Source of the DNA: a virus
Lineage: Duplodnaviria; Heunggongvirae; Uroviricota; Caudoviricetes
IMG/VR virus record: IMGVR_UViG_2778261058_000011
Span: 1-7,517 of that record
Direction: 5' to 3' (one strand)
DNA: 7,517 nucleotides
Part shown: positions 1-7,517 of the stretch, one piece after another
How positions within the stretch are numbered: the stretch's first letter is position 1
Layout: every line of letters begins with the position of its first letter
Program-made: the position numbers and the translations under genes
The notes under the pieces: model-generated
What the model was told of the DNA's origin: nothing
What the model saw: only the letters and a program-made list of their open reading frames with translations
Database searches by the model: none

Positions 1-5
1 AGTAT

Positions 6-281
6 TTAGCGGGCATGAAAATGGCAAATAACGGTCAAACATCGTGGCGTTGACAGTGAAACCGCTTCCCTGTTCTCGTACAGGAAAGCGATGTACATCA
101 GGCAACCAACACGTATTGCCGGGGTAAATTCCAGCCCGTCTTCAAAACGTTTCCCGATATGCTTCTGGCAGGCTTCCAGCGCCGCATCGGTATACATTTT
201 CAGAAGTTCGCCTTCTCCGGAAAAGTCATCAAGGCGAAGATGTGCCCTGACTTCATCAGGTGTAATTTTGTCTTCACTCAT
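6..281 (-). CDS. head-tail connector protein (gp6-like)
   Basis: ORF-track ORF 6..368 trimmed to the ATG at 279-281 (MSEDKITPDEVRAHLRLDD...), 91 aa. An AGGTGA-like RBS sits about 6 nt upstream and the start overlaps the portal stop by 8 nt. Size, the ITPDEVRAHLRLDD / DAALEACQKHIGKRF pattern and the position right after portal fit gp6-type connector proteins of HK97-like heads. Family call is from memory. Confidence 0.65.
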   Translation of the reverse strand: MSEDKITPDEVRAHLRLDDFSGEGELLKMYTDAALEACQKHIGKRFEDGLEFTPAIRVGCLMYIAFLYENREAVSLSTPRCLTVICHFHAR

Positions 282-1488
282 CTTTTTCACCTTTAATTTC
301 CACAGTCTGCTTCCATGCCTGGCTGAACTCGTCGCCACCTTCACGCGGCGGCATTCCCTCACGCTCACGGGCTTCGTTCGGATTCATGATCCCGTTCTTA
401 ATCCCTTTCTCATACGTGGCGTAACGTTCGGTAGGGGTGGCGCGCAGTAAATCGGCTGAATCAAACTCAACCAGATAACGGGTACCAGGTACGGGAGAAG
501 CCACCAGCAAAGCGGCCTTGATTTGCTGTTCGAAGTTCGCCAGCCACGGACGCATTGTCATAGTCAGAAACGCGCGGCTTGCCTCACTGAAATTGCTGTA
601 GGTGCTGTTGCTGTATTCCTGAAGAAAAATCGGCGACACGTTGAACATACGGGCAATGTCTTCAATGGAGAAGCGACGGGAGGCCAGCCATTCAGCATCC
701 TGGTTACTCATTCCCAGTTGCTTGTAATCCATGCCCCCTTCAAGGATTGGCGTTTTTCCGGCATTTTTCGCCCCCTTGTAGCGTTCCAGTGCGTCTAATG
801 CCTGTTTACCTTTCACGCCGTCCAGCCATTCGCCTGACGTGATAATCCCTGCCGCCATCATGCCATCTTTCATAATGCTGGCTCCGTGGCGCTGTTGAGC
901 AAGGCCAAGCCCCAGCGCCTCACGGCAAATCGTGACAGGGGAGCGCCCCAGAAAGCCATCATCCGAGGCATAGCGGAGATGCAGAACTTCTTCCTGTAAA
1001 TACGTGCGCACCGTTCCTGTACAGGGTTCGGTGATGGTATAGCGGTATTTGTGTGCGCCTGTGCGTTCCGGTACAACACACCCCGGCGCATAAGGATGAA
1101 GTGATTTTGGCTGCCCGTCCTGCCCCCACTCAATAACCGCATAGGCGTTACCGTTCAGCAGACAGTGACGCATCATTGTGCGTTTAAACTGGTAAGGTGT
1201 CTGGCACGAATTAGGCTGCTCATTCAGCAGAATATCTACCGGATGACTGTCCAGCCATTCCCGCGCCTCCCTGCCCTTGTCATTACGTACCAGATACAGA
1301 TAACACGGCATCGTGGCCACCGCCTCAGCGATGACAGAAACCGCGTTCATCACAGCAGGCAATGATTCAGCCGTCCCGGCAGAAACATATTCTCCGGATC
1401 CGGTATTCGGTACGCCGGACAGCGCCAGAAAATCATCAATGGACAGGTTACGCAGATCGCTTTTTTTACGACTAAAAGGCCACCACAT
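274..1488 (-). CDS. phage portal protein (HK97 family)
   Basis: 404 aa from the ATG at 1486-1488 (MWWPFSRKKSDL...), 1 nt after the protease stop. The longer track frame to 1578 would overlap the protease by 90 nt and reads like out-of-frame sequence. Size and overall composition fit HK97-type portals, with an RMFNVSPIFLQ segment that resembles a conserved portal motif. Confidence 0.8.
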   Translation of the reverse strand: MWWPFSRKKSDLRNLSIDDFLALSGVPNTGSGEYVSAGTAESLPAVMNAVSVIAEAVATMPCYLYLVRNDKGREAREWLDSHPVDILLNEQPNSCQTPYQFKRTMMRHCLLNGNAYAVIEWGQDGQPKSLHPYAPGCVVPERTGAHKYRYTITEPCTGTVRTYLQEEVLHLRYASDDGFLGRSPVTICREALGLGLAQQRHGASIMKDGMMAAGIITSGEWLDGVKGKQALDALERYKGAKNAGKTPILEGGMDYKQLGMSNQDAEWLASRRFSIEDIARMFNVSPIFLQEYSNSTYSNFSEASRAFLTMTMRPWLANFEQQIKAALLVASPVPGTRYLVEFDSADLLRATPTERYATYEKGIKNGIMNPNEAREREGMPPREGGDEFSQAWKQTVEIKGEKDE

Positions 1489-1489
1489 A

Positions 1490-2050
1490 TCACAACCCCG
1501 CCAGTTCAGCCCAGCGATGACGATTATTTCCTGCCGGGCGTAATTCAGGGTGCTGTGCAAACAACGAGCGGTGGGCAATCTCCACGCCGGATTCGGGATA
1601 AGCAGGCATTGACGTTATCGTGATTTCACGGAGTTCTGCGGCGGTAACAGTGCGCAGATACGGTTTTTGCGCGATATTCCATTCTTCGCATAATGCGCGA
1701 AAGCCAAAGCTCATTCCTGTAATGTCGCCACGCTCCACCAGCGTAAGCACATCTTTTCCAAGCTGGGTATCAGGCGGTGTCAGTTCAAAACGTAGCCCGG
1801 TGTTGTCCTCACTCAGTACCAGTGTTCCGGATTTGGTGCGCCCCAGCAGTCGGGTATAGTCATGCTCATACAGGCAGCGCACATCATTACCCGCCGCCAG
1901 ATAGTCAGCAAAAGCCCCCGGCGTGAACTGTTCGCGGAATTCGTCCCAGATAATTTCTGAAAGGCTGTTCCAGCGAACGGCATAACCCACCAGTTTTTTA
2001 TCGCTGGCGGTCAGTTCAGATGTACGGATTTCAAAATCGGTATTTTTCAT
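1490..2050 (-). CDS. prohead maturation protease (HK97 family, peptidase S78-like)
   Basis: 186 aa from the ATG at 2048-2050 (MKNTDFEIRTSEL...), with GGAG 7 nt upstream. The track start at 2266 would overlap the capsid gene by 167 nt and is unlikely. The N-terminal GYAVRWN region and the size are typical of HK97 prohead proteases. Confidence 0.8.
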   Translation of the reverse strand: MKNTDFEIRTSELTASDKKLVGYAVRWNSLSEIIWDEFREQFTPGAFADYLAAGNDVRCLYEHDYTRLLGRTKSGTLVLSEDNTGLRFELTPPDTQLGKDVLTLVERGDITGMSFGFRALCEEWNIAQKPYLRTVTAAELREITITSMPAYPESGVEIAHRSLFAQHPELRPAGNNRHRWAELAGL

Positions 2051-5728: not shown

Positions 5729-7133
5729 ACAGTGGGCGCACGTCATCACCGTCAATAACGATTACGCCATCATTTTCCAGCTTGTACAGCCAGCGCCGGA
5801 AGTGCTTCATCTCATACCCCAGCTTTTTCATATCGTCGCGTAGCAGGGCGATAGTGCATGGCTCTTTGTGTGCTGCCCGTGTTCTGATGCACTGCCATAA
5901 TGCGGCGTGATTTTCCGTCTTGTTCCCGGCCTCCTCTATGCGCTCCAGTTCAGCAGGGGCGCGGGGAACGTCAATCACCACCATAGACACAATCTCTTCG
6001 CCATCTGTATCGGTAAACACCTCCACGCTTTTAAGGTCGTATGCGCTTTCTTTTGGCTCCTCTGCGTCCTTCATCTTCGTACACGCCGCCACCAGTGCTG
6101 TAACGTCTGAATTTTCCCGGCTGATTCGGTACTCTGCATCAAGCGCGGCACGGAATGCGCTGGAACCACGCGCCCCCTTTGTTTCATCCTTGCCGGAATG
6201 GTGAACCACCAGCACCGTGGCCCCTGTGGCCTGCTTTATCGCGTCACACCCCTGGATAAATGCGCCCATATCGCGGGAATCATTTTCATCATTCCCACCA
6301 AAGCAACGGGCCAGCGTGTCGATCACAATCAGCCGCACATTTTCGCCCGTTCTGCTCTTAACAAGTCCGGCAGTCCTGATAACCTGCTCCACATAGTCAG
6401 GCGATGCAGGGAAAACAGGCGCGTTAATGATGCACAAATCTGTAACCACCTTGTCGTGGGTTATCTCCCACGCCTTAACGCGGCGTTTTACGCCCATACT
6501 GCCTTCGCCAGCGATATAGATAACCGCGCCCTTACTTACCCTGCGGCCTCCCCATGCCATACCTGTGGCAACATGGCACGACCAGGAAATAGCCAGGAAC
6601 GATTTATAGGAACCGCTGGCCCCGTAGGTGCTGCATAATGATTCAGCCGGAATAAGCCCCTTAATTACGTAGCTTTGCTGCGCGTCGAATCCCTCAGAAC
6701 CCCATGAGATGGGAAGTGTGATTTTTCGCTTTCCGCCATTCATGACCAGGCTTTCCCCACGTTCCCAGGTTTCTTTAAGGCGCGGTAGTTGCTCGCCCCA
6801 GTCCTCCAGTAGTTCGAAATTCTCTGAAAGTAACCGCGCTTCCCGGACACCTGCGATCGCCAGTTTTGTGGCAATGGTCAGCATCTGCATATCGTCCAGG
6901 TTTCCGGCGCGTATGACCTTTGCTCTGTATCGTCCTTCATCAACAATCTGTAAATTGTCCAGTTCGCTTAACTGATAACGGCCCAGGTAAACCGGAGGGA
7001 TGGGATCGCCTGCTTTTTTGGCCTGTGCAATCATGTAATGTTCTGCAAAGGAGTGAGCATTATCACCCGCAAAAATAACCGCCTCAGTGTGTTTATCTTT
7101 CGGTAACAGTTTTACGTTCGGTGCCAGTTTCAT
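5727..7133 (-). CDS. replication initiator/helicase, RepA-like RecA-fold P-loop ATPase
   Basis: 468 aa from the ATG at 7131-7133, with AGAGGT 7-12 nt upstream. It has a variant Walker A (STYGASGSYKS), a Walker B-like RLIVIDTLARCFGGNDENDS and a VLVVHHSGKDETKGARGSSA segment typical of RepA/DnaB-like replicative ATPases. The C-terminal ~100 aa may be a DNA-binding domain. The iterons lie immediately 3'. Confidence 0.8.
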   Translation of the reverse strand: MKLAPNVKLLPKDKHTEAVIFAGDNAHSFAEHYMIAQAKKAGDPIPPVYLGRYQLSELDNLQIVDEGRYRAKVIRAGNLDDMQMLTIATKLAIAGVREARLLSENFELLEDWGEQLPRLKETWERGESLVMNGGKRKITLPISWGSEGFDAQQSYVIKGLIPAESLCSTYGASGSYKSFLAISWSCHVATGMAWGGRRVSKGAVIYIAGEGSMGVKRRVKAWEITHDKVVTDLCIINAPVFPASPDYVEQVIRTAGLVKSRTGENVRLIVIDTLARCFGGNDENDSRDMGAFIQGCDAIKQATGATVLVVHHSGKDETKGARGSSAFRAALDAEYRISRENSDVTALVAACTKMKDAEEPKESAYDLKSVEVFTDTDGEEIVSMVVIDVPRAPAELERIEEAGNKTENHAALWQCIRTRAAHKEPCTIALLRDDMKKLGYEMKHFRRWLYKLENDGVIVIDGDDVRPL

Positions 7134-7429
7134 TTTTTACCTCTGGATGCGCTGAGCATGCTTTTTATTTTCTTAATATTTTCACGTGCTTTTTCCCTGC
7201 TGGTGGGCTTACTGCGTTGCGCTGCCTGTACCAGAGAAAAATCACGGCGGAACTGATAAACAGGCATCACGCAGTCATAGTCATAACCTTCACGGCGGTA
7301 AGTAACACACCGTCCCGCCACGCTTTTAATCGTTACCGTGCCGCCGTAGTTATCCCGGAAAATATCGCCGGGGCGGATTTCAGGCCGAGCGGAGCCGCTG
7401 GCAGTAAAGCCAGAATTTTTCTGTTTCAT
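7130..7429 (-). CDS. hypothetical protein (99 aa) translationally coupled to rep
   Basis: ATG at 7427-7429 with GAGGAA about 9 nt upstream. Its stop overlaps the rep start (ATGA). No motif recognised; basic C-terminus. Confidence 0.55.
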   Translation of the reverse strand: MKQKNSGFTASGSARPEIRPGDIFRDNYGGTVTIKSVAGRCVTYRREGYDYDCVMPVYQFRRDFSLVQAAQRSKPTSREKARENIKKIKSMLSASRGKK

Positions 7430-7437
7430 GGTTTTTA

Positions 7438-7517
7438 TTCCTCTGCGCGGGTCTTGTCGTGTATTTCCATAACCGCGTTTAATTCATCAATAACCGGGGT
7501 TAACAGAGTGCTGAAAG
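7438..7517 (-). CDS. 3' end of an upstream gene (partial, C-terminal 26 codons)
   Basis: An open minus-strand frame runs in from the window edge and ends at the TAA at 7435-7437 (...FSTLLTPVIDELNAVMEIHDKTRAEE*), 5 nt before the next gene's RBS/ATG. It is not in the ORF track because it has no start in the window. Read by hand. Confidence 0.3.

Follow-up and report, generated by a model that had tools for sequence, protein, structure and literature searches.

Phage-inducible chromosomal islands of the capsid-forming type (cf-PICIs) were described in 2022–23, and a systematic survey of them comprises 969 elements. In proteobacterial cf-PICIs the genes for capsid, protease, portal and head connectors follow one another in that order and are succeeded by hnh, terS and terL (Alqurainy et al., bioRxiv 10.1101/2022.09.08.507074). 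The capsid of the O157:H7 prototype, EcCIEDL933, is known at 3.2 Å (PDB 9GYI) and is a T=4 shell of 47.5 nm (He et al., bioRxiv 10.1101/2025.02.11.637232); to mature, its capsid protein undergoes N-terminal cleavage at an SxGxxAD motif. Only for EcCIEDL933 and a small number of other islands do experiments demonstrate induction by a helper phage, small capsids made of island proteins and transfer with helper tails. In classical Gram-negative PICIs (EcCICFT073 type) there is no portal, connector or TerL, and the DNA is packaged into capsids supplied by the helper. Here we report on a 7,517-bp stretch of viral DNA, called the window below, which is the entire contig NLNZ01000097.1 of the draft assembly GCA_002229985.1 and has no further sequence on either side. 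With a probability of roughly 88%, the contig is the middle part of an Escherichia cf-PICI, belongs to a sublineage that has a RepA-type helicase with iterons and no head-tail adaptor gene, and represents a damaged copy. Its family is one that has already been described, studied structurally and catalogued, and the contig is not a new kind of element.

Head genes, gene order and complete relatives

All credible genes of the window lie on the minus strand. Searches of the window proteins against family profiles (Pfam, PHROGs and NCBIfam, with PDB and PADLOC also used) identified a head module that runs from the major capsid protein (3245–2100, 381 amino acids (aa); PF05065, E 1e-60; TIGR01554 major_cap_HK97, E 8.5e-89; PDB 9GYI_B) through an HK97-family prohead serine protease (2050–1490, 186 aa; PF04586, E 2e-45; TIGR01543, E 4e-39) and a portal (1488–274, 404 aa; PF04860, E 8e-93; TIGR01537 portal_HK97, E 1e-74; phrog_12, E 1e-118) to a truncated head-tail connector of the HK97 gp6 or Ad1 type (281–6). 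The intact connector homologue matches TIGR01560 (E 1e-19), phrog_40 'head-tail adaptor Ad1' (E 1e-27) and also PF05135. Residues 1–75 of the window connector are 98.7% identical to the connector of the closest complete relative (L001, below) and 57% identical to that of the EcCIEDL933-type element, so that the connector typical of cf-PICIs is present, though cut after codon 75 of 99. A first-pass annotation, made from the letters of this DNA, had recognised an HK97-type head set in the order capsid, protease, portal, connector, and had taken this permuted order as the sign of a capsid-forming PICI. The profile searches of the four proteins agree with it, and this order is the one by which proteobacterial cf-PICIs are recognised in the literature.

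Over its full length the capsid protein can be aligned with chain B of PDB 9GYI (E 2e-186, 74.8% identity), a solved structure close enough to settle its fold. The translated capsid gene of an O157:H7 element at phoQ/roxA (L008), which serves here as the EcCIEDL933-type element, equals the 9GYI chain at every position compared in the alignment. Among 50,697 phage records, the identity of the window capsid to bona fide phages (SfI, ST64B, phi467) does not exceed about 37%, and the records at 57–69% identity are cf-PICI-like only: a 16.5-kb 'phage' from an induced prophage, a 15.3-kb Pasteurella record, a 3.8-kb fragment and, as the fourth, a locus at the end of the 106-kb Klebsiella phage record PQ569648.1. 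The protein begins with a coiled-coil scaffolding (delta) domain of about 93 residues, which is followed by the HK97 fold, and the predicted maturation site lies before S94-G-S-V-P-A-D. The clade-specific HK97-fold capsid, the island-encoded protease and portal, and the lack of tail and lysis (holin) genes are all those of a cf-PICI. The proposal of a capsid-forming PICI is therefore supported, because the capsid is 75% identical to that of the prototype and at most 37% identical to those of true phages, the gene order is the published one, and the complete relatives are 15-kb satellites. The ratio of non-synonymous to synonymous substitution rates (dN/dS) of the capsid gene against its relatives is 0.06–0.08, and values of 0.02–0.3 for the head and replication genes (window against L001 and L002) indicate that the genes of this lineage are kept by purifying selection.

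The closest match in a complete genome is an element of Escherichia coli Br_190_kylling (L001), which is 97.1% identical over bases 53–7440 of the window. Its left part contains a tyrosine integrase, a 309-aa protein of no assigned function, AlpA (PF05930), an Icd-like gene and a small open reading frame (ORF); its middle part contains DUF4222, RepA, the iterons, a 257-aa gene, SSB, an intact 180-aa ProQ/FinO gene and an 82-aa gene; and its right part contains capsid, protease, portal, connector, HNH, a 61-aa homologue of EcCIEDL933 gene 1792, a P27-type TerS, TerL and a 94-aa gene. The packaging families in the relatives are PF01844, PF05119, PF03354 and PF20441. The whole element lies on one strand, measures 15.3 kb and sits in the interval from hpt to gcd, with a 17-nt direct repeat (TCTACARTATGTTTCAT) at either end; it contains no tail or lysis genes. 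The first-pass annotation had asked what lies beyond the two ends of the window, and in the relatives most of what it expected is found there: the Icd-like gene, AlpA and the tyrosine integrase beyond position 7517, and HNH, P27-type TerS and TerL beyond position 1, together with attachment (att) repeats 15.3 kb apart in L001. Only the head-tail adaptor that it also expected beyond position 1 is absent from L001. Between the last gene after terL and the att repeat, L001 has about 1 kb of non-coding sequence (8265–8913) with four copies of a 46-nt unit that has palindromes inside it and may be cos-related or regulatory, among other possible roles.

In E. coli strain 2014C-3075 (NZ_CP027447.1; L002, 98.3% identical over the head module) the same element lies within terL of an Stx1d prophage (7944–24782), between 21-nt repeats (GCAATACACAGYGCAATACAC) that are 14.85 kb apart, and is co-oriented with the late genes. 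The junction between a satellite integrase and a phage terL occurs in 36 complete genomes. This arrangement is not novel, since it equals that of the published helper-embedded PICIs (Barcia-Cruz et al., PMC10111431), for which the paper lists the site A:Terminase_1:245; unlike these, the closest relative of the window, L001, occupies a chromosomal site.

The head module was found in 534 of 5,426 complete E. coli genomes, in 155 at ≥90% identity and in 379 at 60–80%, the latter including O157:H7, and all 581 places are chromosomal. A scan of IMG/VR gave 80 loci with capsids 67–99% identical, most of the complete contigs being 14–18 kb long. When five reference loci are added, protease, portal, connector, HNH, TerS and TerL are each carried by 75–84 of the 85 loci, and no lysozyme or holin match was found in the 80 IMG/VR loci. 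Four small IMG/VR contigs have a tape-measure-like match (about 70% identity), and the larger L051 matches tape-measure and major-tail markers. In L009 (2036–4333), L066, L068, L070, L094 and L051 the tape-measure or tape-measure-like gene stands just after terL, which is odd for elements defined by lacking tails; the tape-measure-like genes resemble the C-terminal part of a helper prophage tape measure. A scan of genome contigs with the capsid protein gave seven loci, among them one in Rosenbergiella sp. YN46 (L010, JAZHEE010000004.1, 4158–5300; Erwiniaceae) with a capsid 89% identical, which is consistent with the cross-genus spread reported for cf-PICIs. As for the window itself, we infer its source genus, Escherichia, solely from the 97% identity and from an insertion sequence (IS) end of the IS21 family at its left edge.

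The window resembles EcCIEDL933 in the order DUF4222–rep–origin–(small gene)–SSB–…–small gene–capsid–protease–portal–connector, with the origin just after rep and a structured leader before the capsid gene. Against the EcCIEDL933-type element L008, identities apart from those of capsid and connector given above are 80.4% for the portal, 62.6% for the protease, 70% for SSB and 71% for DUF4222; the HNH, gene 1792, TerS and TerL products of the complete relatives are 84, 82, 87 and 93% identical to those of EcCIEDL933, and the size of about 15 kb is shared. The two differ in replication gene and iterons, EcCIEDL933 having a 710-aa DUF927 pri-rep with TAACCCGCA iterons and the window a RepA-type helicase with GTGGGGA. 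EcCIEDL933 has PerC where the window has a ProQ/FinO gene; the window has a candidate cargo gene (257 aa), lacks the gp16-like adaptor and is cut by IS21; and the attachment site is phoQ/roxA in the prototype but hpt/gcd or a prophage terL in the relatives of the window. With classical Gram-negative PICIs the relatives share the int-alpA-rep-ori half, the single direction, the origin downstream of rep and, presumably, helper dependence. However, SatelliteFinder forbids portal, connector and adaptor genes in a PICI, and the window, which has both portal and connector, falls outside that class.

The adaptor that separates portal and connector in EcCIEDL933-type elements has no place in the window, where the portal stop (274) and the connector start (281) overlap by 8 nt. 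A gp16_SPP1-type (head closure) adaptor was detected neither in the window, nor in L001 (junction at 12223–12230), nor in any of the nine IMG/VR loci with capsids 97–99% identical, and the direct portal–connector junction occurs in 143 of the 5,426 complete E. coli genomes. In SatelliteFinder an element that has 10 of the 11 components still counts as 'Type B', the class that is largest by type, and, judged by gene content, the adaptor-less lineage would be a cfPICI of Type B. He et al. (bioRxiv 10.1101/2025.02.11.637232) show that the adaptor and the connector protein jointly decide which tails are compatible. More weakly, we suggest that the adaptor-less sublineage may finish its heads in a manner unlike that of EcCIEDL933, for example with the head-closure protein of the helper.

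Replication module and early operon

The first-pass annotation had also described a replication cassette of Rep ATPase, iteron origin and SSB. Each part is present, as profile matches and iteron enrichment show. The replication initiator is a RepA-type helicase of 468 aa (7133–5727, minus strand; PF13481 AAA_25, E 3e-43; phrog_2850, E 4e-185, over the full length), in which residues 146–320 form a hexameric helicase core like that of RSF1010 RepA (PDB 1G8Y, E 4e-5); a primase domain is absent. The gene is preceded by one for a 99-aa DUF4222 protein (7429–7130; PF13973, E 1.6e-24), and the two are joined by an ATGA overlap and are thus translationally coupled. Upstream of these, the 3' end of a small ORF (7517–7435), which is a gene call in the contig record and matches a small hypothetical gene of L002, is cut by the contig end.

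The predicted origin (5723–5525) lies immediately 3' of rep, its first iteron standing four bases past the stop codon. The window has 11 copies of GTGGGGA where 0.95 would be expected; none of 200 shuffles contained as many, and eight of the copies lie inside 5526–5723. In its longer form, RTGGGGAR, the iteron is present ten times in 199 bp, nine times direct and once inverted, arranged as three direct, one inverted, one direct and five direct around a core of 62–68% A+T, and the layout is identical in L001 and L002. For Gram-negative PICIs, too, the origin is reported to follow the replication gene directly. Staphylococcus aureus pathogenicity islands (SaPIs) likewise have it there. The replication gene and origin of a cf-PICI are thus found in the window as a helicase-only variant. 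The replication module is mosaic among the 85 related loci: the RepA module was recognised in 15 and the DUF927 module in 17, the rest being of no assigned type.

RepA-type and DUF927 rep genes are both preceded and overlapped by a DUF4222 gene. The first 122 residues of the window Rep (6768–7133) are 45% identical to the N-terminus of the DUF927 pri-rep (L008 15653–16033), and beyond about 125 residues the proteins are otherwise unrelated. We considered whether the shared N-terminal domain specifies the iteron, but this is unsupported, and because the two replicons use different iterons (GTGGGGA against that of EcCIEDL933) the domain is probably not the iteron reader.

Downstream of the origin follow a gene for a 257-aa protein of no assigned family (5525–4752) and one for SSB (4755–4330, 141 aa; PF00436, E 8e-16; phrog_44, E 5e-39). 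For the 257-aa protein, searches of Pfam, NCBIfam, PADLOC and PDB were negative, and PHROGs gave only a weak match; among the 85 related loci its gene occurs in L001 only, with a dN/dS of 0.09 (purifying selection), and it is a rare accessory gene of the sublineage and a cargo candidate. Two further features, a disrupted ProQ/FinO-domain (RNA chaperone) gene (4293–3759) and a gene for an 82-aa protein (3768–3520; phrog_1957, E 2e-36), intervene before the head module, which therefore does not follow the replication cassette directly, as the first-pass annotation had it. The 82-aa gene is kept in this place in cf-PICIs: 46 of the 85 loci have a homologue, and its counterpart in the EcCIEDL933-type element, which occupies the equivalent position, shows 43% identity. 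A role in defence for the 257-aa, 82-aa and DUF4222 proteins is unsupported, PADLOC, NCBIfam, Pfam and PDB having given nothing that points there.

The genes are closely spaced, and most neighbours overlap by 4–10 nt or are separated by a short gap; longer intervals are found only at the 201-bp origin and at a 274-bp non-coding stretch of terminator, promoter and leader ahead of the capsid gene. Apart from these two regions, the single strand and the tight coupling noted earlier hold. So does the lack of terminase, tail, lysis and lysogeny genes: no ORF of either strand matched terminase, tail, holin, lysin, repressor or integrase families, and the eight longest plus-strand ORFs have no family match.

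The region ahead of the capsid gene

Between the 82-aa gene and the capsid gene, the early (replication) operon ends at an intrinsic terminator (3510–3483), recognised from sequence and fold, with an 8-bp stem (GGCCUGGA/UCCAGGUC), a 5-nt loop and a U7 tail. It is followed by a conserved box, TTTTGTAAATTATTTGT (3478–3462), a possible regulator binding site, which is invariant in five divergent loci. Of 83 distinct upstream regions, 68 contain the core of this box, TTGTAAAT, at 215–256 nt before the capsid ATG. The only sigma-70-like match in the window, a putative promoter of the head operon, comes next (3422–3395; −35 TTTACA, 16-nt spacer, −10 TATGTT), and its −10 region (TTTTTCATGTATAT.TTG) is kept across divergent cf-PICI loci. 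The whole stretch from terminator to capsid start has its counterpart in L001, L002, L008, L009, L010 and about 190 IMG/VR loci.

The remaining 150 nt (3395–3246) form a leader that is structured according to conservation and folding, with a folding z-score of −3.7 in the window. Its first stem-loop, SL1 (3389–3365, 25 nt), reads GUGGC-A-CUCA-GACG-UGAG-CC-GCCAC and has a compensatory variant, CCAG/CUGG, in the EcCIEDL933 lineage; GUGGCACUCAGACGUGAGCCGCCAC is the near-invariant 5' hairpin of the leader. The second, SL2, is a long hairpin at 3361–3301. Across 190 loci, which give 77 different sequences, the first 9 nt of its stem fall into 32 sequence classes, yet the base of the stem stays paired, with a median of 11 base pairs in an unbroken run; the median folding z-score is −3.4. 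An anti-Shine–Dalgarno-like segment, GGUUUCACGUCC, is located at 3286–3275, the start codon being at 3245. RNAalifold on MAFFT alignments recovers the leader structure in part only, as the variable hairpin aligns poorly; in it a segment just upstream of the ribosome-binding region, GGUUUCACGUCU, pairs with the 5' hairpin region in 13 pairs, five of which are changed on both sides, and all five double-sided changes come from the EcCIEDL933 lineage and count as one evolutionary event. In single-sequence folds the same segment pairs instead with the region just before the start codon. The two predicted pairings exclude one another, an arrangement that would suit a translational switch.

At least 120 IMG/VR contigs contain a 21-mer of the leader, GGCACTCAGACGTGAGCCGCC, and in 114 of 116 cases a capsid homologue of the same orientation follows 118–144 nt downstream of it. 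Among phage records only three have the 21-mer, all with cf-PICI capsids. No Rfam family matches anywhere in the window, leader included, at E ≤ 0.1, and no mention of the leader was found in the cf-PICI literature examined. We tentatively suggest, at somewhat less than even odds, that the leader of about 150 nt is an undescribed cf-PICI-specific cis-regulatory RNA, a switch that would gate expression of the capsid operon.

Damage to this copy, competing explanations and significance

Homology to the cf-PICI relatives ends at bases 53–56 of the window. Bases 1–58, used as a query, match 2,582 places in E. coli genomes, at most 12 per genome, with 98–100% identity; in the two cases inspected (L003 and L004) the match stands directly after istB. 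Bases 1–55 (plus strand) are therefore the right terminus, downstream of istB, of a multicopy IS21-family element. The stretch ends with …TGACA at base 55, presumably the CA-3' terminus of IS21 ends. In the connector gene, codons 1–75 (281–56) are native and are followed by 16 IS-derived codons and a stop codon at 8–6, the intact protein having 99 aa. The first-pass annotation had treated the whole window as one element, which holds for the bases past 55, while bases 1–55 belong to the IS21 end that truncates the connector gene. Either IS21 has split the head genes from the packaging genes or it has replaced the latter. The ProQ/FinO gene is damaged as well. Its 180-aa product in the relatives, which the NCBIfam FinO and ProQ models match, is here split into two ORFs (4293–4063 and 4028–3759, the latter with PF04352, E 5e-16), because a tandem 4-bp duplication, CTGACTGA (CTGA), at 4070–4063 leads to a stop after codon 76 in comparison with L001 and L002; a 12-bp in-frame deletion relative to the relatives is also present.

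It could be argued that the island is intact and transferable, and that the IS21 end and the ProQ frameshift are harmless or artefacts of assembly or sequencing. The remaining genes are indeed intact and 97–100% identical to those of the relatives, draft assemblies contain errors, and the length of the IS stretch, 55 bp, is typical of an assembler k-mer overlap and suggests the place where the contig broke, which would explain why the contig ends at an IS21 terminus. However, after codon 75 of the connector the contig continues with a genuine IS21 terminus, a junction for which spanning reads are needed, and a 4-bp tandem duplication is atypical of Illumina error. In EcCIEDL933, moreover, mutants of the packaging module, connectors included, lose transfer yet replicate, the gene 1792 mutant alone being only severely impaired. 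An intact, transferable island is thus improbable. Because the EcCIEDL933 mutants replicate without transfer, the damaged copy can probably still replicate but is unlikely to yield transferable particles, provided that the junction in the draft is real.

A fragment of an ordinary HK97-like temperate prophage, with its terminase, tail and lysis genes on other contigs, is a still poorer explanation and is already largely refuted. Capsid, protease, portal and gp6-like connector do belong to families shared with HK97, HK106, SfI and ST64B, the packaging genes of the relatives are an HNH-dependent cos system as in those phages, the contig cannot be extended, and tail and lysis genes lie near the element in L002. 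The latter, however, are part of a different entity, the Stx1d prophage, into whose terL the 14.8-kb element is inserted, and the element between hpt and gcd in L001 is bounded on both sides without any such genes. Furthermore, the capsid is far closer to the cf-PICI prototype than to real phages, and the capsid–protease–portal order is reversed relative to that of HK97-like phages, which have about 40 kb and T=7 against the 15 kb of the element and the T=4 of the prototype; related IMG/VR contigs have 14–18 kb. Neither the window nor L001 shows the succession terminase–portal–protease–capsid with tail, lysis and immunity genes that makes up a complete HK97-like prophage. A plasmid or phage-plasmid, which the RepA helicase, iterons, SSB and FinO-like gene might suggest, can practically be dismissed: although the RepA/AAA_25 and FinO/ProQ families are common on plasmids and three large plasmid records have the DUF4222–RepA pair at 56–61% identity, all of the E. 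coli head-module places are chromosomal, the relatives carry integrase and att repeats, and partition and transfer genes are absent.

Against the assignment to a damaged, adaptor-less Escherichia cf-PICI several points must be set. The genes int, alpA, HNH, terS and terL lie off the contig, and their presence is deduced from the relatives; the IS21 junction is seen in a short-read draft assembly, with an overlap that resembles a k-mer. The adaptor gene, located between portal and connector in the EcCIEDL933-type element (L008 8630–8968), is one of the 11 core components of SatelliteFinder, and the sublineage without it is known from its genes alone. Unlike the pri-rep of the prototype, Rep has no primase domain, and its binding to the iterons, the activity of the promoter and the function of the leader are all predicted from sequence.

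If the cf-PICI assignment is correct, the life cycle of an intact relative may be pictured as follows, the steps of induction, replication, assembly and packaging being modelled on EcCIEDL933 and on established knowledge of the protein families, and that of the operons on our reading of the sequence. A helper phage would trigger AlpA, encoded outside the window, and thereby excision and the early operon. The RepA-type helicase would bind the ten RTGGGGAR iterons, open the A+T-rich core and load as a hexamer; SSB would coat the single strands, and host enzymes would copy the element into concatemers. The early operon would stop at the intrinsic terminator, and the head operon would be driven by its separate promoter and structured leader. 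The capsid protein would assemble on the portal by means of its N-terminal scaffolding domain, which the S78 protease would then remove, giving a small T=4 shell sized for about 15 kb. HNH, TerS and TerL, encoded beyond the contig, would package satellite DNA at its own cos site, and the connector would dock a tail made by the helper phage.

A cf-PICI can thus be recognised from the raw sequence of a 7.5-kb fragment alone, and close relatives of this one exist in hundreds of public E. coli genomes. What the contig adds to the known family is a copy disrupted by an IS, a sublineage without the adaptor to which He et al. tied tail compatibility, and a conserved leader. Its connector gene interrupted by IS21 and its ProQ/FinO gene frameshifted, the copy illustrates satellite decay. 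The leader, which is shared by related cf-PICI loci, could control the timing of capsid production, and this timing bears on the release of tail-less capsids and on the spread of these islands between species.

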